DNA from: Spirochaetia bacterium | Lineage (GTDB): Bacteria > Spirochaetota > Spirochaetia > SZUA-6 > Bin103 | Reading direction: 5' to 3' | NCBI GenBank assembly: GCA_965198005.1 | Contig: CBDAOI010000002.1 | Location: 736,001 to 800,000 of the forward strand | DNA: 64,000 nucleotides | Shown here: one piece after another, positions 1,600-43,643 of the stretch | How positions within the stretch are numbered: position 1 is the stretch's first letter | Layout: the number at the start of each line of letters is the position of its first letter | Translations under genes and position numbers: made by a program | The notes under the pieces: generated by a model | The model's database searches: none | Told to the model about the DNA's origin: nothing | Seen by the model: the letters and a program-made list of their open reading frames with translations, nothing else

Positions 1600-1793
1600 G
1601 AGGAGGTGGAAAATGATACTCAAAGAACCGCACGCGCGCGCGGTGTGAGCCCGGCCGAACCCGGTGAGTCACACGCCGCGCGCTTTCAGTGTAATTGACT
1701 CAGGCTGGCTGTCCGCGTTGCGGGCGTCAGAGTAGCCGGGGAGCGACAACTCGCTCCGCAATACTCTGGAGATAACATTTTAAGGAAGACACG
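1600..1793 (+). promoter_or_regulatory. Structured 5' leader, family A, with uORF MILKEPHARAV (1613-1648)
   Basis: AGGAGG SD, 11-codon uORF and several stems; homologous to 43206-43400 (-). Confidence 0.75.
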
Positions 1794-3572
1794 ATGAAAA
1801 ACTTTTTGACAATGACCTTCGCGGTTGTGTTGGTCCTGGTGGTGACCGCAACCGGCCTCTGGGCCGCTGGCGCGGAAGAGGAGCCGGCAGCGGCGATGGA
1901 GACGGAAATGGTGGAGGAAGCTGGACCGCAATACGGTGGGACGATTACCATGATGGACGCATATCTCGGGCGCTTCCCGCCTACAGAGTGGGACCCAGCT
2001 AAGTTTGTCTGGCCGTTAATGGTCTATGTTGAACATTTCGAGCAGCTTCTTGGTGGAGACTGGCAGAATAGGGGGCCACGTGGCACCAATGAGTGGCCGT
2101 TCAATATACGTTCAGGTCCTCCTAATGATTTTCTATCACCTGTTTTAGCTGAAAGCTGGACTACGCCCGATGACACAACCGTTATTTTCAAAATACGTCG
2201 GGGAGTCATGTGGCATGAAGCGCCGGGAGTAATGGCATCAAGGGAGCTGACAGCGGAGGATGTAGCTTATCACTGGACTCGTACTCTAGCGTCAGACAAG
2301 GCCTGGAGCATATATGGTGCAGTTGAGTCGGTAACCGCCACGGATGAGTACACGGTTGAATTCAAGTTGGCCTCTTACACGCCTGATTGGATGCTTCTTA
2401 TAGGAAGGGGCCATTTACCGACGTGGATCGCGAGTCCTCCAGAGCTGGTGGAGGCGGGACCAAGTGACTGGAGGAACCATCGTGGGGTAGGGACAGGCCC
2501 GTTTTTGCTCGATGACTTCGTGGAAGGCACCTCGGTAAGTTACGTAAGGAACGACAATTACTGGCAAACTGAAACCATCGATGGCAAGGAATACGAGATT
2601 CCGTTCATCGACCGCCTGGTTAAAATTCTAAATCCGGATAGAGCTGCCCAGATCGCTGCGTTACGAACAGGGAGGCTGGACCAACTTAATGCAGTTGGCG
2701 CGCAGTACGTCCAGTCGCTACAAGATACAAATCCCGAAATAAAGTTTATTGGGAGACCAGCAGGCGGGTCCTACTTAGTAGGCATGAGGCTAGATACGGC
2801 GCCCTTTGACGATCCGAAGGTGCGGAAAGCAATGAGCATGGCTATAGATCGACAAGGCTTTATTGCCAATATATGGGGTGGTGCGGGAGAGATTTTAAAC
2901 TTTCCGGCACCTGCGAACCTGCCAGAGACTGTCTATACTCCTCTGGAGAAGCTACCGGAATCAATTAGGGGGCAGCTTGAATATAACCCCGAGCGTGCGA
3001 GGCAACTATTAGCCGAGGCGGGACTCGCGGACGGTTTCGAGGCGACTCTGCAAGGATATGCAATAGAGCCTTGGGAAGATATAGCTTCGTTACTGGTAGC
3101 TTTCTGGGCTGATATCGGAGTCGACGTTTCAATCGATTTGATTGAGAAGACTACTATGGATGCCATGTTTACAGCCAAGGAGCATGGGCCGCTTTCAATG
3201 TTTACCGTTGGAGGAGGTGTTGATGCGCTTGGTGTAATACAGGGACGATACATCGAGCCCCTGATATATAATACACCAATGTTTGAGCATCACCCTGAAT
3301 ACGCTGAATTTAGAGAGCGATGGCAGCAGGCATACGATAAAAGGGACCTGGTTGAAAAGTACAAGCTAACCAAGCAGTTGAACCAGGAGGCCTTATCGAC
3401 TGTCGCTTTCGCCCTTTTGCCAACTCCATATGTATACCTAGGTATCTGGCCATGGGTGGAGAACCACCACGGCGAACTCGCTCCAGCGGCGGGGACGGGT
3501 GGTGTAGGCCCGGTTATGGCTCGTGTCTGGATCAACAGCGCCTTGAAGCAACAATTGGTGGGAGGTCAATAG
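1794..3572 (+). CDS. ABC transporter substrate-binding protein, family 5
   Basis: Signal peptide, PQYGG, LAESW, GTGPF, PFDDPKVRKAMSMAIDR, YNPERARQLL. Confidence 0.95.
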   Translation: MKNFLTMTFAVVLVLVVTATGLWAAGAEEEPAAAMETEMVEEAGPQYGGTITMMDAYLGRFPPTEWDPAKFVWPLMVYVEHFEQLLGGDWQNRGPRGTNEWPFNIRSGPPNDFLSPVLAESWTTPDDTTVIFKIRRGVMWHEAPGVMASRELTAEDVAYHWTRTLASDKAWSIYGAVESVTATDEYTVEFKLASYTPDWMLLIGRGHLPTWIASPPELVEAGPSDWRNHRGVGTGPFLLDDFVEGTSVSYVRNDNYWQTETIDGKEYEIPFIDRLVKILNPDRAAQIAALRTGRLDQLNAVGAQYVQSLQDTNPEIKFIGRPAGGSYLVGMRLDTAPFDDPKVRKAMSMAIDRQGFIANIWGGAGEILNFPAPANLPETVYTPLEKLPESIRGQLEYNPERARQLLAEAGLADGFEATLQGYAIEPWEDIASLLVAFWADIGVDVSIDLIEKTTMDAMFTAKEHGPLSMFTVGGGVDALGVIQGRYIEPLIYNTPMFEHHPEYAEFRERWQQAYDKRDLVEKYKLTKQLNQEALSTVAFALLPTPYVYLGIWPWVENHHGELAPAAGTGGVGPVMARVWINSALKQQLVGGQ

Positions 3573-20856: not shown

Positions 20857-22666
20857 CTAATAGCCCATTTCTGCCTTCAGCGCACTATCAATCCAGAGGC
20901 GGGCGAGGATGGGGAAGTAGTCCATGAATCCAAGGTGGGTTTCACCGTTGGATCCGACCACCCACGGCTGGTGTGCCATGTACTTTCCAGCTTTAGGACC
21001 CCATATCCACCAGTGGTTCTCCATGGTGTACATATCCACCTCTTTGACCAGCCTTTGCCGTTCCTCTTCGGACGTAGTGGCTTGGGCGGCGTCGAGAAGG
21101 GCGTCCAACTCAGGGTACCTGATTCCGTGTAAGTCCTCGTGGCTAGTCGAGTGTACCATCTGGCGTACAAAACCCAACGGCTCAGTATTGTTGCCCATGG
21201 TGTGATATATCAGACCTTCCCACGTGCGGTCACCTCGAACAGCAGTAGAGGCAGCTCCATCCAATACGTTGATCTGCACATCAACGCCAATCTCGGCCCA
21301 GTAGGTGGCAGCCAGTTCACTGAAACCCAAAGGAAACCGATAGAGATGGTTCAACACGGTCTTGAATCGCGTGCCGTCCGCGCCGCGCGGATATCCGGCC
21401 TCATCCAGCAACGCTTCCGCCGCCGCCGGATCGTACCGATAGCCGTCCTTGACCTCGTCGGGCCACTCGTCGAAGGGAGTGAAATACCCGCTGACGCCCT
21501 CCCCTATTATGCCCTGAGGCTGCCAGGCTGAAGTGCCCTTGTAGACGCTGCGGTCGATGCCCTCGAGGTCTATCGCCATCTGCATGGCTCGGCGCACCCT
21601 GACGTCGTCAAAGGGCGGCTTGCTCGCGTCCATAACATAAGAGGTTTCCGAACGGAGCCACCACGGCAGCAGCATGATCTCGGGGTTGCTCTTCCGGAGG
21701 CTCTCGAGCACCTCGACCGATACGATATCAGAGCCACCGGCAGGCAAACCTAGGAAATCAATCTTGCCGGTGCGCAGTCCCGCTAGACGGGTCTCTTCCT
21801 CTGTGATGATAAGGCCCTGAATCTCGTCAATATAGGGCAGACGATTCCCCGGGTACTTCTCGTCGTCTTTCCAGTAGTCAGGATTCTTCTGGAAGGTAAA
21901 AGAGCTGCCCTCGGTCCAGTCAGTAAGGAAATAGGGCCCGGTACCGACCAGGTTCCTCCAGTCCTTCACGTCACCGTACTGCTGGATGACCTCGGGCGCG
22001 TTCATATAGGTGAGGCCCAGGCCAAGATACTGTCCAAGAGCTGCGCTACTGGGCTCCGCCAGCTTGATAACAACCGTGTATCTGTCGGTGGCCGTTACCG
22101 ACTCGCCAGGTGGCCGCTGATACGTAAAGGGGCTCGGTCCGGCTTCGGCAAAGTCGCCCAGGCCCAGCAGGCGATGAAAGTTGAATACGACATCATCAGC
22201 AGTAAACTCTCTCCCGTTCATCGGTGGCTTGTCGTGCCAGTTCACACCCTTGCGGATGTTGAAGATGATCGTGAGGGGGTCGGGGGTGTCCCAGCTCTCA
22301 GCCAGATGCGGTTTATAGACGGATAGATCCGGAGGTATGTACGTGTTTCTGAACGAAAACACGTCCCTATCTATTCCCCAGTCCATGAGTCCCAGCTTCT
22401 CTGTAGTGCCGCCGGTGACCCTTGCTTGGGAATGAAGGAAATGGGTGTCAGCATTCGCTGGCTCGCCCGCGGTGGCAAAGGTCAATGTCCCGCCATACTC
22501 CGGCGCCACCACTACCTTGCCGGTGGTGGGGTCGGTCACGTACCTCTTCTCCGCGGCGGCGGCCGGCTCCTCCTCTGCACCACCCGCCCACAGGCAGGTC
22601 GCGGTAAGGGCGAGTCCAACCAGGACCGCCAGGCAACTTCGAAACGTTACGCGTTACGTAAAGCAT
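20857..22666 (-). pseudogene. Family-5 SBP frameshifted in the signal peptide by a 7-bp duplication
   Basis: CGTTACG x2 at 22645-22658; removing one copy restores MLYVTFRSCLAVLVGLALTATCLWAGG in frame with the 560-aa body. Confidence 0.85.
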
Positions 22667-22895
22667 TCGATAACTCCTATAAACTCCTATCACTCGAGAG
22701 TACGAAGTTTACTGCCGGCCCCTCGCCTACTCTCGCGGTATGCCTGCAATCGCAGGTAACCGAAAAAACGAGGGCGACACCCTGGCGCGTCCCGGCGCGA
22801 CGGCTCGCCGCCCGGGCTCGATCAGCCATACCTGGCTGTCTTGGTCGTGTCTTAGTCGTATCCGGTCTTGGGTTGCATCCCTTCCTCCTTTGGTC
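22667..22895 (-). promoter_or_regulatory. Structured 5' leader, family B, with uORF MQPKTGYD (22852-22878)
   Basis: AAGGAGG SD, uORF and stems shared with 25921-26122 and 30984-31185. Confidence 0.75.
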
Positions 22896-22960
22896 GATTT
22901 GAACTCGAATCCCGTACCGGCGCAAGCATGGCACCGGCGCGGCTACGTGTCAACCACGAT

Positions 22961-22990
22961 TCGACAATCGACAATCGACAATCGACAATC
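22961..22990 (+). repeat. (TCGACAA)4 tandem repeat
   Basis: Four units here, about two in the duplicate copy near 43867-43885. Confidence 0.85.
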
Positions 22991-23043
22991 GGACCCGCTC
23001 CGAACCCATCAATGCACGTGCGGCGCCACCCTCGGCGGCGCTC

Positions 23044-23928
23044 TCACCCTCGCTCCGGGTCGATGCCCGACCGGCGCAGGAGCGCCGCCAGCCGTTCGGC
23101 GCGTCGGCGTTCCTCACTCAGCAGATGTTCCGCGTGCTCGGCGCGGTGGCGTTCCTGATCCGCGCGGTAGCGTTGTTCCCTGCCCGTCGGAATCAACCCG
23201 TCGTGCTCGTCCGTCCAGCGCAGCCACCTGCTCTGGACGCCCTCGAACGCCCCCTCCCACAGCCTCAGTCCCAACCTCAACTCCGCGAACCGGGGCGACT
23301 CTTGGCGTTCGTAGCCCCCGTCCCTCAACCGATAGATGCGCAAATCCTCCCGCATCACCTGATGCAACGGATCGTAGATCACATAGTAGCCGACACCCAT
23401 GCGCGCGTACGCGAGCCTCTTGCTCCCGACCTCGTTGCCTTCCCGGTTGGAGACGATCTCCACCACCAGGTCCGGCGGCTTGCCGAATTCCCACACGAAA
23501 TAGGAGCGGTGCCTCTTGTCCCACCAGTTGTCGGCCACCTGCACGTCCAGGCTCAGGAACACGTCCGGCACGATCGCCGGGTTGCGCGCCTCCGCGAACA
23601 CGCCGACGTTGGCAGCCGCCAGAAACGTGCGCCCGGCGCCCGGACCGCCCCACGAGCTGTACAGCGGCTCGGTGAGCAGGCGTTGCTGCTTCTCAGAGGG
23701 CATGTTGTCCACCGGCGTATCATCCTCGGTCACCAGAGATTCGATGTCGGCGCTCACCTGCGGCGCCGACAGCGCCGCGGCAACCCCTGCTGCCTGGACC
23801 GAAGCGGCACGCGGCACGCTCGAGGCCGGTCTCGTCAGCACCCTGCCCGGCTGGGCAGGCTCCGCTCCGGGAGCGCTGGATTGCGGGTCAAGCGCGGAAT
23901 GCCTGCGGTCGGGGGTGGTCGGCTCCAT
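23044..23928 (-). CDS. Uma2 (DUF820) PD-(D/E)XK endonuclease-like protein
   Basis: EDDTPVDN..SEKQQRLL, VPDVF, PPDLVVEIVS, YYVIYDP, coiled C-tail. Confidence 0.9.
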   Translation of the reverse strand: MEPTTPDRRHSALDPQSSAPGAEPAQPGRVLTRPASSVPRAASVQAAGVAAALSAPQVSADIESLVTEDDTPVDNMPSEKQQRLLTEPLYSSWGGPGAGRTFLAAANVGVFAEARNPAIVPDVFLSLDVQVADNWWDKRHRSYFVWEFGKPPDLVVEIVSNREGNEVGSKRLAYARMGVGYYVIYDPLHQVMREDLRIYRLRDGGYERQESPRFAELRLGLRLWEGAFEGVQSRWLRWTDEHDGLIPTGREQRYRADQERHRAEHAEHLLSEERRRAERLAALLRRSGIDPERG

Positions 23929-24120
23929 GCGCTCACCAGTATACACCTTTCCGACACTCCCTCCAGCTCGGCCAACCGGACCGCCAGGGAAGGCGACCGC
24001 CGATGGCCGATGGTTGCCTACGGCCTCGACTGGTCGGAAGCGAAACGAGGCGTGTTCTACCCGCATAGACACTCGGAGGGGGACAATTCCGTTGCCCCCC
24101 TCCGGCAGGCTAATGAAAGG

Positions 24121-25920
24121 CTAATGCCCCATTTCTGCCTTCAGCTCACTGTCAATCCAGACCCGCGCGATGACGGTGAGGAAGTCCATACGTCCAAGCC
24201 AGATTTCACCGTTAAAACCGGCGAGCCACGGCTGGTGCGCCATGTAGCTTCCGGTTTTGGGACCCCATATCCACCAGTGGTTCTCCATGGTGTACATATC
24301 CACCTCTTTAGCCAGTTTCTGCCGCTCCTCTTCAGAAGCAGTGGCTTCGGCGGCTTCAATAAGCGAGTCCAACTCAGGGTACCTGATTCCGTGAAAGTCA
24401 TTCATACCGCTCGAGTGTACGGAGCCGCGTATATAAGACATAGGATTACCATTAGTGCCCAGAGGTTCCCACATCAGACCTTCCCAAGTACGGTCCCTTC
24501 GAGCAGCCTCAAAGGGGCCGGTATCCCATGGGTTGATCTCCACGTCGACGCCAATCTCAGCCCAGTAGGTCGCCGCTAGTTCACTGTAGCCTATACCCAG
24601 TGTAGCACTAATGTTCAGTGTGGTATCGAATCTGGCACCGTCCGCGCCGCGCGGATATCCGGCCTCATCCAGCATAGCTTCCGCCCCTGCCAGATCGTAC
24701 CGATAGCCCTTCTTGACCTCTTCCGGCCACTCTTCAAAGGGGGTGAAGTACTCGGTGATGCCTTCCCCCACTATCCCCTGAGGCTGCCACATCGACGTGC
24801 CCCTGTAGAAGTCGCGGTCAATGCCCTCGAGGTCGATTGCCATCTGCATCGCCTTGCGCACCCTGATGTCGTCAAAGGGCGGCTTGGACGCGTCCAGTGC
24901 AAAAGAGTTTGTCGAACGGCTCCACCACGGCTGCAGCACGATTTCGGGGTTGCTCTTCCGGATGCTGTCGAGTACTTCGACCGATGTGATGTTGGGCGGA
25001 CCGGTAGTGCTACCCATGAAGTCAATCTTGGCCGTGCGCAGTCCCGCCAGAATTGTTGCTTCCTCTTTGATGATAAGGCCCTGAATCTCGTCAATATAGG
25101 GCAGACGATTCCCCGGATACTTTTCATCGTCTTTCCAGTAATCAGGATTCCTCTGCAAGGTCATGGAGGTGCCCTCGGTCCAGTCGGTCAGCAGATAGGG
25201 ACCGGTACCGACCAGGTTCCTCCAGTCCTTCATGTCACCGTGCTCCTTGATGACGTCGGGGGGGTTTATGTAGGTGAGACCAATGCCGAGATACTGTCCA
25301 AGAGCTCCGCTGCTCGGCTCGGCCAGCTTGATAACGACCGTGTATCGGTCGCTGGCCGTTACCGACCCGCCCAGTGGTGGCCGCTCATACGTAAAGGGGC
25401 TCGGTCCGGCTTCGGCAAAGTCGCCCAAGCCTAGCTGGCGATGAAAGTTGAATACGACATCATCCGCGGTTAGCTCTCTCCCATTCATCGGTGCCTTGTC
25501 TTGCCAGTGCACGCCCTGGCGGATGTTGAAGATGATCGTGAGTGGGTCGGGGGTGTCCCAGCTCTCAGCCAGGTGCGGTACAAAGAGGGATGGAGGCATG
25601 TACCAGTGTCTGAACGCAAACACGTCCCTGTCTATTGCCCAGTCCATGATTCCGAGCTTCTCCGTGACACCGCTGGTGACCAGCCCTGGGAGATGACTGA
25701 CATGGGTGTCGGCATGCGGCGCCTCCAGCGACGTGGCATAGGTAAATGTCCCGCCATACTCCGGCGCGCTGACCATCTTGCCGGTGGACGGGTCGAGCAC
25801 CATTTCCTTCTCCATCGCCGCGGCCGGCTCCTCTTCTGCGGCGGCAGCCCCGAGGCCGGTTGCGGTCAGAACGAGACCGCACAGTACCGCGAGGCAGGTT
25901 CGAAACGTTACGTAATGCAT
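24121..25920 (-). CDS. ABC substrate-binding protein, family 5 (no adjacent permease)
   Basis: Signal peptide, PEYGG, LAESW, GTGPY, PFDDIRVRKAM. Confidence 0.95.
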   Translation of the reverse strand: MHYVTFRTCLAVLCGLVLTATGLGAAAAEEEPAAAMEKEMVLDPSTGKMVSAPEYGGTFTYATSLEAPHADTHVSHLPGLVTSGVTEKLGIMDWAIDRDVFAFRHWYMPPSLFVPHLAESWDTPDPLTIIFNIRQGVHWQDKAPMNGRELTADDVVFNFHRQLGLGDFAEAGPSPFTYERPPLGGSVTASDRYTVVIKLAEPSSGALGQYLGIGLTYINPPDVIKEHGDMKDWRNLVGTGPYLLTDWTEGTSMTLQRNPDYWKDDEKYPGNRLPYIDEIQGLIIKEEATILAGLRTAKIDFMGSTTGPPNITSVEVLDSIRKSNPEIVLQPWWSRSTNSFALDASKPPFDDIRVRKAMQMAIDLEGIDRDFYRGTSMWQPQGIVGEGITEYFTPFEEWPEEVKKGYRYDLAGAEAMLDEAGYPRGADGARFDTTLNISATLGIGYSELAATYWAEIGVDVEINPWDTGPFEAARRDRTWEGLMWEPLGTNGNPMSYIRGSVHSSGMNDFHGIRYPELDSLIEAAEATASEEERQKLAKEVDMYTMENHWWIWGPKTGSYMAHQPWLAGFNGEIWLGRMDFLTVIARVWIDSELKAEMGH

Positions 25921-26122
25921 CGATAACTCCTATCACTCGAGAGTACGAAGTTCACTGCCGGGCCCTCGCTTACTCTCGAGGTATGCCTGCAATCGCAGGC
26001 GGTCAGAAAGCGAGGGCGACACCCTGGGTCGTCCGGACGCGGCGGCTCGCCGCCCGGGCTCGATCGGCTTGGCTACGGCTTAGTCGTATCCGGTCTTGGG
26101 TTGCATCCCTGCCTCCTTTGGT
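25921..26122 (-). promoter_or_regulatory. Structured 5' leader, family B, with uORF MQPKTGYD (26080-26106)
   Basis: CTCGAGAGTA/TACTCTCGAG, GCCTGC/GCAGGC and GCCCTCGCTT/AAGCGAGGGC pairings. Confidence 0.75.
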
Positions 26123-26279
26123 CGACTTGGACACACCGACCGACACACCGACGGCGCGGCGGGCGTCGCGAGGTGGGTCACAACGCCACGTGACGTGGTG
26201 TCGAGGTATGGCGGTGGTGGGCTCGGCGAAGCCGCGGTTAGTGGTTCTTGATCGTCAGGTGTATCACAGAGTCCCTCCC

Positions 26280-26378
26280 GGGGGGGGGGGGGGGGGGGGC
26301 AGAAACGTACCACCGGCCGCTTCGAGGCTAACCAGTGGCTGTGCGGGTATGTGTCTTCATGCTGCATCATGCGCATCG
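26280..26378 (-). promoter_or_regulatory. Upstream motif plus C20 homopolymer
   Basis: G20 at 26280-26299 next to the conserved motif. Confidence 0.65.
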
Positions 26379-26609
26379 GTCACGATCCCCAGGCAGTCAC
26401 CATAGCCCACGCCGCAACAGCCGTCAAGCGGGTGTCGTCAGGCACGTCAGGCACGTCAGGCATCAGCCGCATTGGTGAGGCTCGCACGGTGGTCACCCTA
26501 GCCGACGCTGCAACAGCGGTCAAGCGCGGCCAATGGCCTCCGCCGAGCGGCCGATGGCCAATGGTCGACGACAGCTCTGGAGTACACCTCGCTGGGCCAG
26601 GAAGAGGAA

Positions 26610-26792
26610 TCACGCCCAATCCAGAGGCCGGGTCAACGTGAGAACATTCCGCCTCCGGCTGACGAACAGGTCGAACCGGTCAAGTAGGTCCCGACCGAGC
26701 AACGACGGCACCCATCCGTCCGGATTCTTCTCCGCAACCGACAGCGCAACGCCGAAGGTATGCTCGCCGTCATCAACGGAACGCAGGACCAA
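26610..26792 (-). pseudogene. Retropepsin-like protease C-terminal fragment
   Basis: SLLGRDLL motif present; DTG half missing. Confidence 0.55.
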
Positions 26793-27066
26793 CCAGGATC
26801 ATAATTCGAGGATTCTTCTCCAGGAGTGCGATGGCCGTCTGGGCCTCCGGAAACTGATGATTCTTCAGCTCCTGATAGATACCCTGGTAGGTGTCGCTGT
26901 GCAGCACCCCAAGGCTATGATGGAGCCCGACCCACTTGTCCGGGTACTGCTGGACGAGCTCGTCACGCCGGTCGCACATCATCTGGTTGGACTTCCGGAA
27001 GGCGGCGTCGTCCCGCCGGAATCGTTCGGCCTCCTCCGGAGTCATTCGTCTGGACGTTATCTCCAT
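26773..27066 (-). CDS. DUF5678-like small protein
   Basis: DELVQQYPDKWVGL pattern, directly upstream of the protease fragment. Confidence 0.55.
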   Translation of the reverse strand: MEITSRRMTPEEAERFRRDDAAFRKSNQMMCDRRDELVQQYPDKWVGLHHSLGVLHSDTYQGIYQELKNHQFPEAQTAIALLEKNPRIMILVGPAFR

Positions 27067-27259
27067 GGGATCAGCTCCAACGGGCGGCTGTGTGGTGATG
27101 CCGCGACCGTGCACGGGGGTCGCCGGGTCGCGGCGACCCTCACGTTCAGTCTTGAAACATTACACTTGTCGCGCGACACGTCAATATCGTCAAAGATCGT
27201 CAACGGTTTTCGCCCGCAGCGGACGCCCGCCGCCAGCCGTTACGTAAACTTCCGAAGCA

Positions 27260-28165
27260 CTACACGGACCGGGCCTCTTGCGCGCCCAGACGGCCCGCTC
27301 CACCGATCAGCCGCGGGTCGAGCAGGTCGCGCACCGCGTCGCCGAGCATGTTCAGGCTGTACACGGTAACCGTCAACGCCAGGCCGGGCCAGAAGGCGAG
27401 GTGCGGCGCCGCCTCCATGTACTGGCGGCCCTCCCGGCTCAGCATTCCACCCCAGCTCGGAATCTCGATCGGCAGGCCGAAGCCAAGAAAGCTCAAGGCA
27501 GCTTCCGAGATGATCACGCCCCCGACGTTGATGCTGAATACCACGATTATCGGAGCCGCGATGTTGGGCAGCACGTGGCGGACAATTATCTTCCACTGCG
27601 AGGCGCCAATCGCCCGCGCGGACTGAAAATAGTCGTTCTCCTTGACATTGATGACAGCGCTCCTGAGCACGCGCGAGCCGACGATGCCGCCCGAGATGCC
27701 CAGGACCGCGATCAACTGCACCAACCCCTGGCCCACGATCGCTATGATGGTCAACAACAGCAGCAGCCCCGGGAACGACATCCACGCATCCACGAACCGC
27801 TGCACTACCAGGTCCAGCCTGCCACCGAGGAATCCCGAGGTGCCGCCGATCAGCACGGCGACCAGAACGTTGAGCGTGGTGGCTGCCAGACCCACCGTCA
27901 GGGAAACCCGGGCGCCGTGGATGATGCGGCTCAGGAGGTCCCGCCCCAGGTGGTCGGTACCGAGCGGATACTGGGCCGATGAGCCCCGCAACCGGTCGGG
28001 CAGGTGCCTCTCACCATAGGGGTAGGGAGCGATCACGTCAGCGAAGACGGCCACCAGAATCAGGATCACTACGGCAATGCCGCTGGCCGTTCCCAGCGGC
28101 TTCTCCTTGACCAGCCGGGTCAAGAACCGCGTGCGCCCGCTGCTTTGACTGCTTTGACCCACCAC
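27260..28165 (-). CDS. dppC: ABC permease DppC-like
   Basis: [35 protein letters not shown] start assumed. Confidence 0.92.
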   Translation of the reverse strand: MVGQSSQSSGRTRFLTRLVKEKPLGTASGIAVVILILVAVFADVIAPYPYGERHLPDRLRGSSAQYPLGTDHLGRDLLSRIIHGARVSLTVGLAATTLNVLVAVLIGGTSGFLGGRLDLVVQRFVDAWMSFPGLLLLLTIIAIVGQGLVQLIAVLGISGGIVGSRVLRSAVINVKENDYFQSARAIGASQWKIIVRHVLPNIAAPIIVVFSINVGGVIISEAALSFLGFGLPIEIPSWGGMLSREGRQYMEAAPHLAFWPGLALTVTVYSLNMLGDAVRDLLDPRLIGGAGRLGAQEARSV

Positions 28166-28176
28166 TGTTTGACCGC

Positions 28177-29130
28177 CTACTGGTAGCGGACCCGGGGATC
28201 CAGGACCGCATAGACCAGGTCGATCATCAGGTTGATCCCCATCACCGCGCTGCCGAACACCAGGTTGATGCCGGCGACCACCGGGAAGTCTCGGTCGTTG
28301 AGAGCCACCAGCATCAGACGACCCAACCCGGGCAGGTTGAAGATGTTCTCGATGATGACCGCGCCACCCACCAGGATGGGCAACTGCAGGCCGATCATCG
28401 TAACCACCGGAATGAGGACGTTCTTGACCGCGTGCCGCACCACCACCACCCGTTCCTTCAGGCCCTTGGACCACGCCGTCCGGATGTAGTCCTGCCTCAG
28501 CACCTCCAGCATCATCGTGCGCGTCATCCGCATGGTAGCCGCAGCCAGGTAGGTCCCCAGAATCAGGCTGGGGATCAGGAACATGCCGAGATTCCCCAGC
28601 GGGTCTTCGCTGAACGTGATCAGCCGCATCGGCGGCGACCAGCCCCACCAGATGGCCGGGTAGATCATCACCATCAGGGCCAGCCAGAAGTTGGGCGTTG
28701 CCAAGCCCAGGATGGCGATGGAGCGGCCGGCGTAGTCGACCGCCGTATCCTGGCGAATCGCCGAGTAGATGCCGACCGGCAGGGCGATCGACAGCCCGAT
28801 TACGATGGACAGCACACCCAGCTCGATGGTGACCGGCAATCTACCGACAATCTTCTCCTCTACCAGCCAATCGCCCATCAGTGAGCGGCCAAGGCTGCCG
28901 TGCAGCAGGATATCTCCCAACCAGCGGCCGTACTGCACGTAGACCGGCTGGTCCAGTCCCAGCATCCGCTCGAGCGCTGCACGGTCCACCTGCCCCAGGC
29001 CTCCCAGCCTGCCTTGCATGACGTCGATCACATCGCCCGGGATGAAGCGGACCGAGAGAAAGACCAGGATGCTGAGGATGAACAGGGTGGGGATGACCAG
29101 CAACAACCGCCTGATGATGTGGGCTCTCAT
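28177..29130 (-). CDS. dppB: ABC permease DppB-like
   Basis: IIRRLL, PGD, DYIRTAWSKGL, LDPR. Confidence 0.93.
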   Translation of the reverse strand: MRAHIIRRLLLVIPTLFILSILVFLSVRFIPGDVIDVMQGRLGGLGQVDRAALERMLGLDQPVYVQYGRWLGDILLHGSLGRSLMGDWLVEEKIVGRLPVTIELGVLSIVIGLSIALPVGIYSAIRQDTAVDYAGRSIAILGLATPNFWLALMVMIYPAIWWGWSPPMRLITFSEDPLGNLGMFLIPSLILGTYLAAATMRMTRTMMLEVLRQDYIRTAWSKGLKERVVVVRHAVKNVLIPVVTMIGLQLPILVGGAVIIENIFNLPGLGRLMLVALNDRDFPVVAGINLVFGSAVMGINLMIDLVYAVLDPRVRYQ

Positions 29131-29183
29131 GGTCCTCGCACCCTCGGAGGGGGACAACCCCTTGTCCCCCTCCGGAGGGAGAG

Positions 29184-30983
29184 CTAATTACCCATTTCCG
29201 CCTTCAGCTCACTGTCGATCCAGAGCCGCGCGAGGAGGGTGAGGCGGTCCATGAATCCAAGCCAGGTTTCACCGTTGAATCCGACGACCCAGGGCTGGTG
29301 CGACATGTACTTTCCAGCTTTGGGACCCCATATCCACCAGTGGTTCTCCATGGTGTACATATCCACCTCTTTGACCAGCCTTTGCCGTTCCTCTTCGGAC
29401 GTAGTGGCTTGGGCGGCGTCGAGAAGGGCGTCCAACTCAGGGTACCTGATTCCGTGTAAGTCCTCGTGGCTAGTCGAGTGTACCATCTGGCGTACAAAAC
29501 CCAACGGCTCAGTATTGTTGCCCATCGTGTGGAATATCAGACCTTCCCAAGTACGGTTGCTTCGAACAGCAGTAGCGGCAGCTCCATCCAATACGTTGAT
29601 CTGCACATCAACGCCAATCTCGGCCCAGTAGGTGGCAGCCAGTTCACTGAAACCCAAAGGAAACCGATACAGATGGTTCAACACGGTCTTGAATCGCGTG
29701 CCGTCCGCGCCGCGCGGATATCCGGCCTCATCCAGCAACGCTTCCGCCGCCGCCGGATCGTACCGATAGCCGTCCTTGACCTCGTCGGGCCACTCGTCGA
29801 AGGGAGTGAAATACCCGCTGACGCCCTCCCCTATTATGCCCTGAGGCTGCCAGGCTGAAGTGCCCTTGTAGACGCTGCGGTCGATGCCCTCGAGGTCTAT
29901 CGCCATCTGCATGGCCCGGCGCACCCGGACGTCGTCAAACGGAGGCTTGCTCGCGTCAATCGCATACGAGTTTTCCGAACGGTCCCACCACGCCTGCAGC
30001 ACGATTTCGGGGTTGCTCTTCTGCAGGCTCTCAAGCACCTCGACCGACGTGATGTCAGAGACACCAACGGGAAAGCCCAGGAAATCAATCTTGCCGGTGC
30101 GCAGTCCCGCCAGATAGGTGGCTTCTTCCAGGATGATAAGGCCCTGTATCTCGTCGATATAAGGCAGACGATTCCCCGGATACTTCTCGTCATCTTTCCA
30201 GTAGTCAGGATTCTTCCGGAAGGTAAAAGAGCTGCCGTCGGTCCAGTCAGTCAGCAGATAGGGACCGGTGCCGACCAGGTTCCTCCAGTCCTTCACGTCA
30301 CCGTGCTCCCGGATGACCTCGGGGGCGTTCATATAGGTGAGGCCGATGCCGAGATACTGTCCGAGCGCTGCGCTACTGGGCTCCGGCAGCTTGATAACGA
30401 CCGTGTATCGGTCGGTGGCCGTTACCGACTCGCCAGCGGGCCGCTGATACGTAAAGGGACTCGGTCCGGCTTCGGCGAACTCGCCCAGGCCCAGCAGGCG
30501 ATGGAAGTTGAAGACGACGTCATCAGCAGTAAACTCTCTCCCGTTCATCGGTGCCTTGTCTTGCCAGTTCACCCCTTTGCGGATGTTGAAGATGATCGTG
30601 AGCGGGTCGGGGGTGTCCCAGCTCTCAGCCAGATGCGGTCGGTAGACGGATAACGGTATGTACGTGTTTCGGAACGAAAACTCGTCCCTGTCCATTGCCC
30701 AGTCCATGATTCCCAGCTTCTCCGTGGTGGCGCCGGTGACCATTGCCTGGACATGGAGGAAATGGGTGTCAGCATTCACTGGAGCGACCCCGCCAGTGGC
30801 GTAGGTCAAGGTCCCGCCATACTCCGGAGCGCTGACCATCTCGCCGGTGGCCGGGTCGCGCACCATTTCCTTCTCCATCGCCGCGGCCGGCTCCTCTTCT
30901 GCGGCGGCAGCCCAGAGGCCGGTTGTGGTCAACACGAGACCGCACAGCACCGCGAGGCACGTTCGAAACGTTACGTAATGCAT
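29184..30983 (-). CDS. ABC substrate-binding protein, family 5
   Basis: MHYVTFRTCL signal peptide with GGAG SD; family-5 motifs. Confidence 0.95.
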   Translation of the reverse strand: MHYVTFRTCLAVLCGLVLTTTGLWAAAAEEEPAAAMEKEMVRDPATGEMVSAPEYGGTLTYATGGVAPVNADTHFLHVQAMVTGATTEKLGIMDWAMDRDEFSFRNTYIPLSVYRPHLAESWDTPDPLTIIFNIRKGVNWQDKAPMNGREFTADDVVFNFHRLLGLGEFAEAGPSPFTYQRPAGESVTATDRYTVVIKLPEPSSAALGQYLGIGLTYMNAPEVIREHGDVKDWRNLVGTGPYLLTDWTDGSSFTFRKNPDYWKDDEKYPGNRLPYIDEIQGLIILEEATYLAGLRTGKIDFLGFPVGVSDITSVEVLESLQKSNPEIVLQAWWDRSENSYAIDASKPPFDDVRVRRAMQMAIDLEGIDRSVYKGTSAWQPQGIIGEGVSGYFTPFDEWPDEVKDGYRYDPAAAEALLDEAGYPRGADGTRFKTVLNHLYRFPLGFSELAATYWAEIGVDVQINVLDGAAATAVRSNRTWEGLIFHTMGNNTEPLGFVRQMVHSTSHEDLHGIRYPELDALLDAAQATTSEEERQRLVKEVDMYTMENHWWIWGPKAGKYMSHQPWVVGFNGETWLGFMDRLTLLARLWIDSELKAEMGN

Positions 30984-31185
30984 TCGATAACTCCTCTCAC
31001 CCGAGAGTACGAAGTTCACTGCCGGCCCCTCGCCTACTCTCGAGGCATGCCTGCAATCGCAGGCGGTCAGAAAGCGAGGGCGACACCCTGGGTCGTCCCG
31101 ACGCGGCGGCTCGCCGCCCGGGCTCGATCGGCCTGGCTACGGCTTAGTCGTATCCGGTCTTGGGTTGCATCCCTTCCTCCTCTTG
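30984..31185 (-). promoter_or_regulatory. Structured 5' leader, family B, with uORF MQPKTGYD (31144-31170)
   Basis: Near-identical to 25921-26122. Confidence 0.75.
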
Positions 31186-31281
31186 CTTCTGTCTCGCTTT
31201 TGTCGATTCGGACGCATGGGCCGCACGGCGGGCGCCGCGACCTGGGTCACAGCGCCACGTGGAGCGGTGTCGAGATGTGAC

Positions 31282-31366
31282 GGGGGGGGGGTACAGGAAG
31301 TCCAGCTGCGTCACCGCGATCCGGTGCCAGCGCTGGGAAGTATCATCACGTATCATCGTCCGCATG
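31282..31366 (-). promoter_or_regulatory. Upstream motif plus C10 homopolymer
   Basis: G10 at 31282-31291 next to the conserved motif. Confidence 0.65.
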
Positions 31367-32653
31367 TTTCCAAGAACCCTGAGCATCGCACTGTGCCATG
31401 GCGCGACAAGCACGTCAAGTCACCGATTCGGTGGCCAGCAATTCTCGGTGAACGGCTGGTAGAGGGGCAGAGTGTCATAAGCTCAAGCCCTCCGTATGTG
31501 AAATGCGACCATGCCCCACCTGTTGGCCCACCGCGTGAATGCGCGACCCAATAATACCCATTCCTCCCGTGAAAGGCATGCACCGGACGGCCCGACCCGG
31601 CCCGACCCGGCCCGACCCGGCCGAACTTCTATAACTGATTGCAGGTGAAGTAGTTAGCCACCGTCATGCAGCCCCGTGCGATGACCTGACCACCGTCAGC
31701 CACCGCCGCTCGGCCGATGCCGCGGGCTGGCGCGGTGCCGCGATCGGCCCTTCGGGGCCGGTTGCCCGCGCGCCGCCGGCACACCTGCGCCGCAGCCCCA
31801 GTCAGGGATCGTTCAGGGAGCAGGTTCAGTTCCCCAGGGAGCGGCTACCCGGACAGCGGCTGCGGCGGCGAGTTCATCCGCACCAGCACCTGGTCCCACG
31901 ACGGGATCAGGAATAGCCGGAACGTGGCACGCACCGCGCCCCAGAACTCCCGGCGCGACCCGAACCCAGCCCGCACCTGCTGATACAGACCGTCCACCAG
32001 CTCGAATATCTGGTGCATGAAATAGGCCAGCAGGTTGAGTAGGAAGAACGCCTCCGACAGGTACTTGTCACCGTGGCCGAAGTTGTGCTCCAGGTGATAG
32101 CCCTGGTTCTTCAGCGTATTGAACCCCTCGTTCTCGATCTTCCAGCGTGCCCGTCCCGCACGCACGATCCGCGCTACGCTGTCCGCGGTGGGCACCAAGT
32201 CGGTCACCCAGGCGTTTTGATAGGTGGTCGTGCCGGCCCGTACGATGCGGTAGTGCACGAAGTTGATCTGGGGACTGCGGGGGTTGCCGTTCAGCGGCAC
32301 CCCGGTAACCCACTCGTATTCATGCCGGTCCCCGGTCGCGTCGATCGTGCAGTGGTGGTCCAGCAGCCGACCGCGGCGCAGCCCTTCGATATCCTGGTAC
32401 AGGCTGGTGTGACCCTCCGGCTTGGCCACCAGCAGAAACGAGAAGCGGGCGGCGCGCACCTGTTCGATGAACGGTTGCTTGGAGTACAGACTCAGACTTC
32501 CTGACATGGTGCGCTGACCGGCTCCCGCGTTAGTCGCTGGAACGCTCCAATAACCCGGTTTTCGGGCATTTCTGCTCTCCGATACAGTCTTTTCGCTTGA
32601 CATACCATGGTTCAATAGGGCCATATATGATGATACATGTTTGGAGCACTCCC

Positions 32654-41351: not shown

Positions 41352-43205
41352 CTAGTGTCCCATTGCTTCCTTCAGCTTCTGGTCAATCCAAAGGTGTATG
41401 AGGACGTCACGTACGCCCGATTCTTCGAGCATCCATTCACCGTTAAAACCTTGGACCCACGGCTGGGTCACCTGATAAACTGGAGCCATAGGACCCCATA
41501 TCTGATTGTGCTGCTTTAACAGGAACAAATCATACTCTCTGAATGCCGTCAGCTGCTCCTCTTTGGTGTTAGCGGCGATAAAGGCATCATACGCGGCGGT
41601 CAACTCAGGGGTCTTCTTACCGCCCGTGTTGTTTCCGCCCTGGTATTCGCGCAGGGATGTTAAGGCCGTGGTATAAAAGCCCATCCACACGGTTGGGGCA
41701 CTATAAAAGCCACTGTCGCCAGTGCTCATCTCATAAGTAATGTCTCCCTCATCTCCATCAGACCCTCCTCTGTTACCCCACCACGTCAAACCTGGTACTA
41801 CATTAATCTCTACATCAATGCCAATATCAGCCCAGTATCCGGCAGCTATTTCTACATAGCCTAAATCCATGATGTCGCGGTGGTCAAAGGTGAGCTTGAA
41901 TCGAACGCCGCCCGCGCCTCGCAGATATCCAGCCTCGTCAAGCAGCTTCTCAGCACCTTCCGGGTCATACCTGTAGTATTGCTTGAGATCTTCGGGCCAC
42001 TCTTCAAATGGGAAGAGATACGGCTTGACGGCAAGTCCCCCCATAGGTTCCCACATCGAATAGCCGCCATAGTAGGTATCGTTAATCGTCTCGAGGTCCA
42101 GTGCCATCTGCAGTGCGTGGCGCACCCTGATGTCGTCCAAGGCCGACTTACGAGTGTTCAGAGTAACGGTTGTAAACGACCGCTGGTAATAACTGCTCAC
42201 CTGGATTTCGGGGTTGATCTTCTGGAGGCTCCTTAGCACGTCGAGGGATTTTATATCAGCGCCACCGCCGGCTTGATGTATTACGTCCACCACACCCGTG
42301 CGTAGTGCCGATATACGTGTTGCTTCTTCTGTCATCCAAAGAGCCCTTATCCGATCAACGTAGGGCAAGCGGTTCTCCGGGTATTTTGGGTCGTAGCCCC
42401 AATAGTCAGGATTCTTGTCCCAAGTGAGAGAGACGCCTTCGACGTGGTCTTTCAGGACAAGGGGCCCCGTGCCGACCACGTTCCTCCAATCCTCATAGTT
42501 GCCGTATTTCTCGACTACCTCGGGGGGTAATATAAACTGCATTCCTTCGATGAGGATAAGCCTTAGCGCTATGAGGGATGGCTGCGTCAGCTTCATAACA
42601 ACCGTATATTTGTCGGCGGCCTCTATCGATTCCCACGGCAGCTGGATCACCCCGTAAGAGGCGCCGGGTTGTTCGGTGAAGTCGCCCAGAACGTTATTAC
42701 GCTGATAGGTATATACGACATCATCGGCTGTGAGTTCCCGCCCATTTACCAAGCGGCTGGCCTCACTGTCTTGATCAAGGGCGTAGTTAACGCCCTGACG
42801 GATGTGGAAGATGTAAGTCAGTGGGTCGGGAGTTTCCCAGCTTTCAGCCAGAGCCCCTGTTATGACAAAATCAGGAGGGTAAGAGTCTCTAAAGTCATAT
42901 ACCTCCCTATCTATTCCCCAGTCCCCCCAGCCGAGATGCTCATTAACACTGCCGATTTGGTGTGCAGCCTCACCGCCCCTTGCGAACGGGTCCGTATTTT
43001 CCCCTATTATTGTGTGAGGATAGGTTATTGTCCCGCCGTACTCCGGTGCGGTCACCACCTTGCCGGTGGTGGGGTCGGTCACATACTTCTTGTCGGCGGC
43101 GGCTGTCGGCTCGGTGTCTGTGCCACCGCCGGCCCAGAGGCCGGTTGCGGTCAGAGCCAGGACCAACGCAACCGCGCAGGTCATTCTCAATATGATTTTC
43201 ATCAT
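41352..43205 (-). CDS. ABC substrate-binding protein, family 5
   Basis: TATGLWAGGG signal peptide, PEYGG, LAESW, GTGP, DDIRVRHAL. Confidence 0.95.
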   Translation of the reverse strand: MMKIILRMTCAVALVLALTATGLWAGGGTDTEPTAAADKKYVTDPTTGKVVTAPEYGGTITYPHTIIGENTDPFARGGEAAHQIGSVNEHLGWGDWGIDREVYDFRDSYPPDFVITGALAESWETPDPLTYIFHIRQGVNYALDQDSEASRLVNGRELTADDVVYTYQRNNVLGDFTEQPGASYGVIQLPWESIEAADKYTVVMKLTQPSLIALRLILIEGMQFILPPEVVEKYGNYEDWRNVVGTGPLVLKDHVEGVSLTWDKNPDYWGYDPKYPENRLPYVDRIRALWMTEEATRISALRTGVVDVIHQAGGGADIKSLDVLRSLQKINPEIQVSSYYQRSFTTVTLNTRKSALDDIRVRHALQMALDLETINDTYYGGYSMWEPMGGLAVKPYLFPFEEWPEDLKQYYRYDPEGAEKLLDEAGYLRGAGGVRFKLTFDHRDIMDLGYVEIAAGYWADIGIDVEINVVPGLTWWGNRGGSDGDEGDITYEMSTGDSGFYSAPTVWMGFYTTALTSLREYQGGNNTGGKKTPELTAAYDAFIAANTKEEQLTAFREYDLFLLKQHNQIWGPMAPVYQVTQPWVQGFNGEWMLEESGVRDVLIHLWIDQKLKEAMGH

Positions 43206-43400
43206 CGTTAGTATCCTTGCTTGGATTTTGAGAGTATTGCGGAGCGACTTGCCGCTCCCTGGTTACTCTCGCGCCCGCAACGCGGACGGCCAGTCTGAGT
43301 CGAATTCACTAAGAGCGCGCGGCGTGTGACTCGGCGGGTTCACCCCGGCTCACGCCGCGCGCGCGTGCGGTTCTTTGAGTGTCATTCGAACCTCCTTCTT
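43206..43400 (-). promoter_or_regulatory. Structured 5' leader, family A, with uORF MTLKEPHARAA (43350-43385)
   Basis: Homologous to 1600-1793, with a compensatory base-pair change. Confidence 0.75.
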
Positions 43401-43435: not shown

Positions 43436-43643
43436 CAGCAATTCTCGGCGAGCGGCTGTCAGGGGAACAGAGTGTCATAAGCGTTGACGTGTTATAGGTC
43501 ACTCAAGCCCTCCGCAGGTGAGGCACAGCTATACCCAGACCCAGATGTAGTCGCGATGTCGCGATTGACTGCATCCACCCTATAATAACCTCCGCGCCCA
43601 TGGATGCCAACCACGAATCGCCCCAGCAATTCTCGGTGAACGG
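43436..43643. mobile_element. Two tandem solo ends of the ISNCY-like element (43436, 43624)
   Basis: CAGCAATTCTCGG(C/T)GA; the first copy matches 31436-31500 further in (CAGAGTGTCATAAGC, TCAAGCCCTCCG). Confidence 0.75.

Follow-up and report, generated by a model that had tools for sequence, protein, structure and literature searches.

What is the function of the long 5' leaders that precede the solute-binding protein (SBP) genes of an uncultured, sponge-associated Spirochaetia bacterium? The question is raised by a 64,000-nucleotide (nt) stretch of its genome (hereafter the window), where three genes of the SBP_bac_5 family carry on the minus strand the leaders B1, B2 and B3 (family B), and further members of the same family carry leaders of another type (family A, represented by A1 and A2). 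Each B leader contains a strong Shine-Dalgarno (SD) sequence followed by a very short upstream open reading frame (uORF), and then a series of complementary segments that ends just upstream of the SBP ribosome-binding site (RBS). The genome assembly has a size of ~4.9 Mb and is 90% complete. We are confident that these leaders represent a sense-strand RNA module found in most members of a hugely expanded SBP_bac_5 family of one bacterial genus. The two conserved parts of the module are, with much the same confidence, a strong SD with a translated mini-ORF of 1-11 codons, and an H-type pseudoknot. The leader probably sets the amount of each uptake protein made.

Architecture and covariation of the family B leaders

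A pattern back-translated from MQPKTGYD matched the window three times on the minus strand (22855-22878, 26083-26106 and 31147-31170) and never in 100 shuffled sequences, which confirms the initial annotation in its report of three copies of an SD with an identical 27-nt uORF. Including the stop codon, this uORF (ATGCAACCCAAGACCGGATACGACTAA, MQPKTGYD*) is indeed the same 27 nt in B1, B2 and B3. It has (A/G)AGGAGG 5 nt upstream in every copy, and the AGAGTA stem in front of the SBP_bac_5 gene follows ~130-145 nt downstream; the SD of the uORF lies ~200-225 nt upstream of the SBP ATG. The remaining parts described earlier are likewise all present on this strand and in the reported order: a spacer of variable length, which is 14 nt longer in B1, the GC hairpin CCCGGGCGGCGAGCCGCCGCG..GGG (CCCGG-GGCGG-CGAG-CCGCC...GGG), the hairpin GCCTGC-GATT-GCAGGC (with ACCTGC in B1), and the stem CGAGAGTA ... 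TACTCTCG, with the SBP SD (AGGAG) and ATG ~5-16 nt past the stem.

When 21 B leaders were folded jointly with RNAalifold, the program picked, unprompted, not the AGAGUA stem but a long-range helix of 13 base pairs (bp), termed P1, in which UGUCG|CCCUCGCU pairs with GGCGAGGG|2-nt bulge|CGGCA. P2 is a small hairpin, and P3 is the 7-10-bp GAGAGUA/UACUCUC helix. An alternative pairing of GCCCTCGCTT with AAGCGAGGGC had already been noticed in the 25.9-kb copy; the pairing is real, but it is not peculiar to B2, being present in all three copies and all relatives, where it constitutes P1. In all 21 sequences as well as in 100 aligned sequences, the strands follow the order P1-5', (P2), P3-5', P1-3', loop 3, P3-3', which is the topology of an H-type pseudoknot, and the conserved core is therefore best described as a candidate for such a fold, with P1 crossing P3. 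Loop 2 has a length of 0 nt and loop 3 is variable, with 9-12 nt; in compact copies P2 is missing and loop 1 is reduced to ~3 nt (CGA), and in some copies an extra hairpin is inserted between P3-5' and P1-3'. The loss of P2 and these inserted hairpins are consistent with a knot whose loops are free to vary. By rule of thumb, the loop lengths (~3+, 0 and 9-12 nt) are compatible with simultaneous helices, and P1 and P3 presumably form at the same time. The putative pseudoknot begins 14-73 nt past the uORF and ends 5-25 nt before the SBP RBS.

Covariation was evaluated on 100 matches, 96 of them distinct, from the genome under study and six relatives, which had been aligned to R1, a covariance model of 21 B-type cores; this alignment was fitted to P2 and P3, not to P1. 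Paired cells made up 89.3% of P1-P3, compared with 84.5% after shuffling and 39-46% in controls in which the partner strand had been slid. Two-sided changes were found in 19 of the 29 pairs (155 cells), a level that none of 500 shuffles reached. They concern 9 of the 10 pairs of P3 (pair types AU 44/GC 35; UA 65/CG 23; AU 74/GC 8) and 5 of the 13 pairs of P1, where helix-level switches are found in addition; in P2 the pair types GC 32/AU 31 were counted. P1 is strongly conserved in sequence and its column counts are modest (CG 75/GC 5; CG 74/GC 4/UA 1; UG 46/CG 17/UA 14). Among 84 distinct strand pairs, its outer part switches between UGUCG/CGGCA, UGCCG/CGGCA, CUGUG/CACAG, UGUCC/GGGCA, AGUCG/CGGCU and UGUCG/CGACA, and its inner part between CCCUCGC/GCGAGGG, CCGUCGC/GCGACGG and CCUUCGC/GCGAAGG. 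Furthermore, cognate strands pair more stably than re-dealt ones, both in P1 (-19.98 vs -18.83 kcal/mol, standard deviation 0.22) and in P3 (-12.10 vs -9.49 kcal/mol, standard deviation 0.19), with 0 of 300 permutations as good in either case. U-G wobbles are frequent (pair 31-110 is UG in 77 sequences and pair 17-128 in 46); since they would read as A-C mismatches on the opposite strand, the fold is specific to the sense strand. On the evidence of these alignments, covariation is shown for P1, P2 and P3.

Two further pairings were considered and rejected. In the window copies P3 extends inwards by CGAGG/CUUCG, but in relatives the 3' strand of this extension falls into the variable loop 3, and the extension is not conserved; a pairing of the uORF SD with the 5' strand of P1, suggested by the minimum-energy fold of B2, was no better than that of shuffled SD windows (mean z 0.09, 38 leaders). 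A search of Rfam, proposed in the initial annotation, matched no family: Rfam 15 at gathering thresholds gave 0 matches in the whole 64-kb window, and in E-value mode the region 25880-26420 gave only xerDC, with an E-value of 1.6 and 17.8 bits against a gathering score of 72.5.

The initial annotation had also set the conservation of the leaders against the neutral divergence of recent duplicates, and the leaders exceed this level, with a reservation about gene conversion in B2 and B3. At four-fold degenerate sites, the three pairs of coding regions are identical in proportions of 0.71, 0.81 and 0.74 (219, 263 and 225 sites), and the DNA upstream of the uORF SD in proportions of 0.47-0.63, compared with 27/27 in the uORF for all pairs, and 79/89, 79/89 and 85/89 in the core (P1 to the end of P3). 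B2 and B3 have an identity of 0.95 in their first 40 codons, whereas B1 shares only 0.71-0.72 with either of them there, so that the leader stands out as an island of conservation. The SBP genes themselves are mosaics: the 95% identity of B2 and B3 in the first 40 codons drops to ~78% later, and the 3' half of B1 matches that of B3 at 93%. The pattern points to gene conversion among the B-type SBP paralogs (20857-30983), with a recent tract in B2/B3. The conservation between the leaders of B2 and B3 is partly due to this recent conversion, a problem of which the comparisons with B1 are free. The coordinates of all parts are listed in Table 1.

Table 1. Positions in the window of the leaders, their predicted parts and associated features
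Feature	Position	Strand	Details
Leader B1, uORF SD to SBP ATG	22664..22890	-	10-nt tandem duplication of the SBP SD region
B1 mini-uORF MQPKTGYD*	22852..22878	-	SD AAGGAGG 22884-22890
B1 pseudoknot core (candidate)	22695..22779	-	P1-5' 22767-22779, P2 22742-22757, P3-5' 22728-22735, P1-3' 22713-22727, P3-3' 22695-22702
Leader B2, uORF SD to SBP ATG	25918..26118	-	ATG 25918-25920
B2 mini-uORF MQPKTGYD*	26080..26106	-	SD AAGGAGG 26112-26118
B2 spacer hairpin Px (CCCGG-GGCGG-CGAG-CCGCC-...GG)	26033..26058	-	variable or absent in other leader classes
B2 P1 5' strand UGUCGCCCUCGCU	26009..26021	-	
B2 P2 hairpin GCCUGC-GAUU-GCAGGC	25985..26000	-	within pseudoknot loop 1; dispensable: absent from compact copies
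B2 P3 5' strand CGAGAGUA	25971..25978	-	
B2 P1 3' strand AGCGAGGG-CC-CGGCA	25956..25970	-	abuts P3 5' strand, loop 2 = 0 nt
B2 P3 3' strand UACUCUCG	25938..25945	-	preceded by variable 10-nt loop 3 GUGAACUUCG at 25946-25955
B2 SBP RBS: SD AGGAG then ATG	25918..25932	-	
Leader B3, uORF SD to SBP ATG	30981..31182	-	ATG 30981-30983
B3 mini-uORF MQPKTGYD*	31144..31170	-	SD GAGGAGG 31176-31182
B3 pseudoknot core (candidate)	31002..31085	-	P1-5' 31073-31085, P2 31049-31064, P3-5' 31035-31042, P1-3' 31020-31034, P3-3' 31002-31009
Family A leader A1	1613..1796	+	uORF MILKEPHARAV* 1613-1648; core 1705-1767; SBP ATG at 1794
Family A leader A2	43203..43385	-	uORF MTLKEPHARAA* 43350-43385; core 43231-43293; SBP ATG 43203-43205
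SBP genes downstream of B leaders, ~600 residues	B1 20857-22666, B2 24121-25920, B3 29184-30983	-	SBP_bac_5, E 2e-63 to 5e-67
Poly-C tract, 20 C, upstream of B2	26280..26299	-	part of extended upstream region common to many leaders
Poly-C tract, 10 C, upstream of B3	31282..31291	-	

All five window SBPs that were tested belong to PF00496 (E 1e-60 to 1e-68). In B1, the SBP SD region contains a 10-nt tandem duplication, and the SBP frame is broken after codon 5 by a 7-nt tandem duplication (CGTAACG; window 22640-22690, minus strand); four tandem copies of the 7-nt GATTGTC are found upstream of the same leader (~22958-22990, minus strand). As for the SBP SD itself, inspection by eye rather than by a folding program indicates that in B2 a 4-bp mini-hairpin GAUA/UAUC (GAUA-GGAGU-UAUC, 25921-25933) could enclose it in its loop. 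Judged in the same way, similar mini-hairpins are often possible in family A (loci L064 on), where the stem can take in the start codon, e.g. CAUACG-GAGAAA-CGUAUG and a compensated variant AUAGG..CCUAU.

Copy number, uORF classes and the relationship with family A

The module is present in the genome in far more copies than the window contains. A simple AGAGTA...TACTCT pattern occurs 70 times, and in 64 of these cases an ORF of at least 300 codons, carrying a very similar signal peptide, starts no more than 80 nt away. At E<=0.01, R1 gives 53 matches, many of them with altered stems that the pattern missed; most of the latter precede an SBP paralog, a long ORF being located at the expected position in 33 of the 38 examined. 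R2, a covariance model of 61 A-type cores, gives 81 matches. With nhmmer profiles of both alignments, 129 distinct cores were found. Using B2 and A1 as tblastn queries, 152 SBP loci of at least 900 nt were identified. In 115 of these, a core lies no further than 350 nt from the predicted start, and by this criterion 117 of the 129 cores could be assigned; the other 12 lie at truncated genes or are partial. The number of SBP_bac_5 Pfam matches scored in this genome (G000) is 133, and the paralogs share a near-identical signal peptide (..ALVLVLTATGLWAAGAEEEPAAA..) without a lipobox cysteine. The leader module is kept between SBPs whose proteins are only ~45-50% identical.

Beyond this genome the distribution is narrow. 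Matches to R1 occurred in 7 of 61 genomes, including the one studied here, and all seven are of one genus (6 of its 10 other members); the 13 sister-genus genomes and the other seven families gave no match, in a search with stricter filters in incomplete genomes. R2 has 32-62 matches in each of four relatives. When exact 22-nt core patterns were searched in one genome for each of 185,579 species, they were found only in three or four metagenome-assembled genomes (MAGs) labelled Spirochaetia bacterium and in one contig. This contig (L292), 4 kb long and from a bin labelled Acidobacteriota, has the single exact family A core match outside the Spirochaetia-labelled MAGs, and is possibly mis-binned or the result of a transfer. 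In the open-access full text that was searched, no description of the leader or of an SBP expansion in such bacteria was found.

The uORF had been called invariant, which holds for the three recent duplicates in the window; family-wide, on the other hand, several classes exist. Among 100 aligned B-type leaders, 75 have an SD followed by an ORF of at most 14 codons, and the remaining 25 have no uORF by this rule, several of them retaining the SD but carrying ATA, GTA or CTA at the position of the ATG. The largest class (24 leaders) ends in Y-D or Y-G, with the peptides MQ/MP/MA/MT-PKTGYD, MTPRTGYD, MKHPTGYD, MPPQTGYD, MKSPYD, MQTLTVYD and MQILTVYG; the others are AUG-stop (18), MxN (13), (M)Kx (8) and other peptides (12). 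A GGAGG within 150 nt upstream of the core is present in 85 of the 100 leaders, compared with 961 of 5000 random windows (19%). In the Y-D/Y-G class, Gly is encoded by GGA, GGT, GGC or GGG, Thr by ACC/ACG, Pro by CCG/CCC and Gln by CAA/CAG, all three stop codons TAA/TAG/TGA are used, T-G-Y-D is retained, and replacements occur only at residues 2-4. Similarly, in 63 distinct 11-codon uORFs of family A, the changes in the MILKEP half are mostly synonymous (CTC 45/CTG 17; GAA 52/GAG 8; AAA 61/AAG 2). In the HARAA half the changes affect second codon positions, a pattern that would be expected under a constraint to keep the strong hairpin of which this half is one arm. In 9 of 77 family A copies the stop codon directly follows Pro. 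The synonymous changes in both families point to genuine translation, and the uORFs are presumably translated in vivo. No regulatory codon runs are contained in MQPKTGYD, MxN, MKx, M* or MILKEPHARAA.

The proposal that the A and B leaders are variants of one RNA class with a shared architecture has stood up well. Both precede paralogs of the same SBP_bac_5 family, and share the order of their parts as well as a homologous core, GAGAGUAG-C--GG--CGGCA-U ... UACUCUC, in which GAGAGUAGCCAGGGAGCGGCAAU... aligns with GAGAGUAGGCGAGGGGCCGGCAGU.... The models also detect each other's families: R1 finds 33 of 61 A loci and R2 13 of 35 B loci (E<=0.01), in full-length alignments that superpose P2 and P3, and the fold expected to be common to the two families is thus seen. 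In addition, chimeric leaders exist (C4:381351 and C2:457562), the former combining a B-like long P1 with an A-like hairpin P4 (R1 E 1e-8), and other intermediates have an A-type uORF joined to a B-like core. Since the SBP of a relative that is 73% identical to that of B2 has an A-type leader (L010), leaders and genes must recombine. Together with the covariation, these observations support the homology of the A and B leaders. In family A, P1 is cut to 5 bp, CUGGC/GCCAG, which is paired at 97.9% in 58 distinct copies, and the segment that forms the outer P1 in family B folds locally as the hairpin P4 in loop 3. The core of A1 accordingly consists of P1A (CUGGC/GCCGG), P2, P3 (AGAGUA/UACUCU) and the inner hairpin P4.

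Two side observations may be added. Upstream of the uORF SD, a GC-rich palindrome (GTGCGCGCAC / ACGCGT) stands immediately before TCAAAGGAGG in many leaders, e.g. in the G000:C4:1651145 and 2346162 regions and in L003-L005, and may be an operator or processing site. A related SBP gene of a different MAG (L001, 1250-1530) has an unrelated AT-rich leader with two tandem units of SD plus ATGAACCGTCAAAAAAGTAGAGGAATCGTCGAG..., followed by a hairpin.

Evidence for and against a role in expression

Evidence for transcription comes from four sponge metatranscriptome runs, available as contigs of 150-420 nt that give no starts, ends, strand or level, and whose uncovered parts are uninformative. The contigs cover 22522-22745 (the B1 coding start into the core), 26081-26226 (the B2 uORF and 120 nt upstream) and 31222-31464 (upstream of B3, including its poly-C tract). 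This fits a long transcribed leader and proves neither its ends nor its strand. As the first of these contigs agrees with 22522-22745 at every position, both duplications in B1 exist outside the assembly. Of 107 leaders, 58 are preceded, at a distance of 190-650 nt, by a poly-C tract of 8-28 C and none by a poly-G tract; contigs crossing the tract of B3 differ in length by one letter. Such tracts may serve phase variation or the loading of Rho. About 115 nt before the poly-C tract lies an upstream motif GGAGGGCTTGAG ... CCGAGAATTGCTGG, the two halves of which are present in 24 and 30 of the 107 leader regions, respectively, and which occurs in the window at ~31440-31495 and 43455-43525 (minus strand); in A2, a ATGACACTC start within this motif begins a frame of 42 codons that continues into the uORF. 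A promoter scan gave 2 sigma-70-like sites, with 2.4 expected, neither positioned to explain the leaders. An intrinsic terminator was rejected as well: in 22400-31600 there are 3 terminator-like sites against 5.1 expected, and the sole one within a leader needs a T-run specific to B1.

How might the module act? We propose that the mini-ORF, which combines a strong SD with hardly any elongation and with a conserved context of last codons plus stop, would be a parking site that holds a ribosome on the long 5' leader, and that the compact pseudoknot, with P1 stacked on P3, would lock the segment just 5' of the SBP RBS in one fold. Parked ribosome and knot would then protect the transcript against Rho and against decay that enters at the 5' end, and would keep the SBP SD accessible. 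SBP output would depend on the availability of ribosomes and on the kinetics of termination at the mini-ORF, through an effect on translation or on the life of the mRNA. We infer every step of this effect on expression. What all classes have in common, namely a near-perfect SD with almost no ORF, the last-codon context and a rigid knot beside the SBP RBS, favours a general expression module. The entire reading including its mechanism, i.e. a post-transcriptional expression module and not a metabolite-specific switch, is tentative, and we give it a probability of roughly 40%. Control of the SBP family had already been suggested in the initial annotation: the leaders do sit before the same SBP_bac_5 paralogs, but the control stays an inference, as neither a terminator nor an alternative fold sequestering the SD was found.

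Several points weigh against this reading. The peptide of the uORF varies between classes, a quarter of the leaders lack it by the rule given above, and the spread of 14-73 nt between its stop codon and P1 argues against a precise coupling based on the footprint of the ribosome. The sequences are all kin, being drawn from a single genus and from paralogs among which sequence is exchanged, so that the covariation counts overstate the number of independent events; no two-sided changes occur in the 5-bp P1 of family A (61 copies of this genome), and the A copies were chosen by a pattern that fixes P3, which makes this set unable to test P3. The nested minimum-energy fold of B2 is unremarkable (z -1.29; 21 of 200 shuffles fold as well), and P1 and P3 could be mutually exclusive instead of simultaneous. 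The contigs of the RNA libraries may contain DNA, quite apart from their silence on ends, strand and level; they also reach upstream of the uORF, which places the strong SD probably not at the primary 5' end. Moreover, RNase J, a 5'-to-3' exonuclease said to be blocked by SD-type stabilisers, has 0 matches (TIGR00649) in this 90%-complete genome, and a leader acting as an RNase J barrier was rejected for this reason.

Alternatives that keep a function for the RNA differ in what the conserved parts would do. In an attenuation of the tna type, Rho would load on C-rich leader RNA, either the poly-C tract or the G-poor spacer after the stop, and a ribosome held at the stop of the mini-ORF, perhaps with the pseudoknot as a roadblock, would determine whether Rho catches up with the polymerase ahead of the SBP gene. 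The strand-specific poly-C tracts, the RNA-library contigs that run across that of B3, the C-rich, G-poor run directly after the stop in B1 and in the relative C2:725695 (GACACGACCAAGACACGAC...), and the conservation of last codons and stop at the amino-acid level within one uORF class would all suit such a mechanism; nevertheless we consider it unlikely, for 49 of 107 leaders have no poly-C tract of at least 8, the C-rich spacer is found in some copies only, the leader downstream of the uORF is GC-rich and tightly folded and would be a poor loading site, and the peptides are unlike TnaC. Attenuators of the trp/his type find no counterpart here either, as there are no codon runs and, in 22400-31600, no U-tract terminator or antiterminator beyond the T-run of B1. 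A receptor function, which seems to us unlikely to a similar degree, would make the pseudoknot an aptamer for a global signal or the dock of one RNA-binding protein or small RNA (sRNA) that co-regulates peptide-type SBP genes, as GcvB regulates oppA and dppA in enterobacteria. One element before more than 100 genes suits a single trans-acting regulator, pairing alone would not require the degree of sequence conservation seen in both P1 strands and in the 5' half of P3, and the knot adjoins the RBS like the small pseudoknot riboswitches preQ1-II and SAM-II. However, the positions that could form a pocket are variable (the P1 bulge is GC, AU, AC, GU or AG, copies differ in both the sequence and the length of loop 3, and loop 1 ranges from ~3 nt to a whole hairpin), the SD lies outside the knot with no SD-sequestering alternative standing out, and no Rfam family matched. 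For a riboswitch, in particular, the unpaired parts are too variable, the alternative pairing with the uORF SD does not exceed that of shuffles, and no terminator was found in 22400-31600. As to the regulators themselves, the leader as a CsrA target was rejected, PF02599 having 0 matches in the 90%-complete genome with positive control genomes; a trans-encoded antisense sRNA was rejected too, as no copy of the core motif, exact or with one mismatch, was found outside the leaders, in a crude search that would miss short seeds.

It could also be argued that the RNA has no function at all, and that the similarity of the leaders results from recent SBP duplication and gene conversion at the 5' end, with DNA sites (promoter, operator or recombination) being what matters. 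The mosaic similarity of the three B-type genes, the high similarity of the signal-peptide region across paralogs and the restriction to one genus would agree with this. Yet sites read by a single protein would not be expected to show compensatory changes within one genome, as P1, P2 and P3 do, the G-U pairs are strand-specific, the third-position substitution pattern in both uORFs indicates coding constraint, uORF and core are more conserved than both flanks in the comparisons with B1, and the module persists between strongly diverged SBPs, so that we regard this explanation as very improbable. A bolder idea, which we hold to be a long shot, is that the mini-ORFs (xTGYD-, MxN-, MKx- and AUG-stop) are new termination-arrest elements that park a ribosome on the leader, that the knot, by folding the RNA in between, hands this parked or terminating ribosome to the SBP start more than 100 nt away, in a bacterial form of shunting by uORF plus structure, and that the variable poly-C tract dials each gene.

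Comparison with known leaders and significance

Some features of the module have parallels in known systems. Stalling leader peptides such as those of cat86 (MVKTD), cmlA (MSTSKNAD) and ermC depend on their last residues, and a ribosome held in the leader alters the downstream message, the stall melting a hairpin that hides the downstream SD. The leaders described here resemble them in having a strong SD and a very short ORF, with the last residues of the peptide conserved, in the 5' leader of the gene that would be regulated; in contrast, the SBP SD is not hidden, the uORF lies more than 100 nt from it with a pseudoknot in between, and no drug is implied. With the tna leader of E. coli (tnaC and its adjacent Rho site) they share a mini-gene with a conserved stop context, a long untranslated spacer and C-rich leader RNA, but the peptide is unrelated (8 vs 24 residues, without W12, D16 and P24), and the spacer is folded and GC-rich. 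The core is similar to the preQ1-II and SAM-II riboswitches and to the rpsO/S15 operator in having, immediately 5' of an SD, two crossing helices that can stack coaxially and a loop 2 of almost no length. In those RNAs the SD or start codon is inside the knot and conserved loops bind the ligand or protein, whereas here the SD is outside and the loops vary; moreover, P1 is unusually long (13 bp), and no Rfam model matched. Mycoplasma vlp and Bordetella fim likewise combine many paralogs sharing a conserved leader and signal peptide with an upstream homopolymer tract of variable length; these are surface antigens with the tract in the promoter, unlike the transporter binding proteins studied here, whose tract is seemingly transcribed and whose leader has a conserved RNA fold.

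A further parallel is provided by the STAB-SD of Bacillus thuringiensis cryIIIA and the polypurine 5' stabiliser of mycobacterial katG (PMC4113751, PMC2358910). As in STAB-SD, a near-perfect SD is located far upstream of the start codon in a long leader, and part of the copies have no usable start after it. Most copies here, however, have a start and a stop with coding-type substitutions, and a pseudoknot is included; in addition, RNase J was not found and the SD probably lies downstream of the primary 5' end. Small uORFs with an SD of their own in the mRNA leader are reported to modulate the main ORF in Sinorhizobium meliloti, by translational coupling or RBS occlusion at closely spaced sites (PMC13285730), and in Mycobacterium tuberculosis, in interplay with a riboswitch (PMC11260477). 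Coupling and occlusion, which need overlap or close spacing, do not fit start sites that are more than 110 nt apart with a stable structure between them.

If our reading is true, the leaders represent an undescribed structured RNA motif with ~130 copies in one genome, in which a mini-ORF and a long-stem pseudoknot stand before one massively expanded transporter family. The natural variants, i.e. the classes of uORF, the compact and expanded knots and the A/B chimeras, would allow the cooperation of uORF and pseudoknot in bacterial translation or mRNA stability to be dissected, and the module would be relevant to the way in which symbionts handle very large numbers of nutrient-binding proteins.

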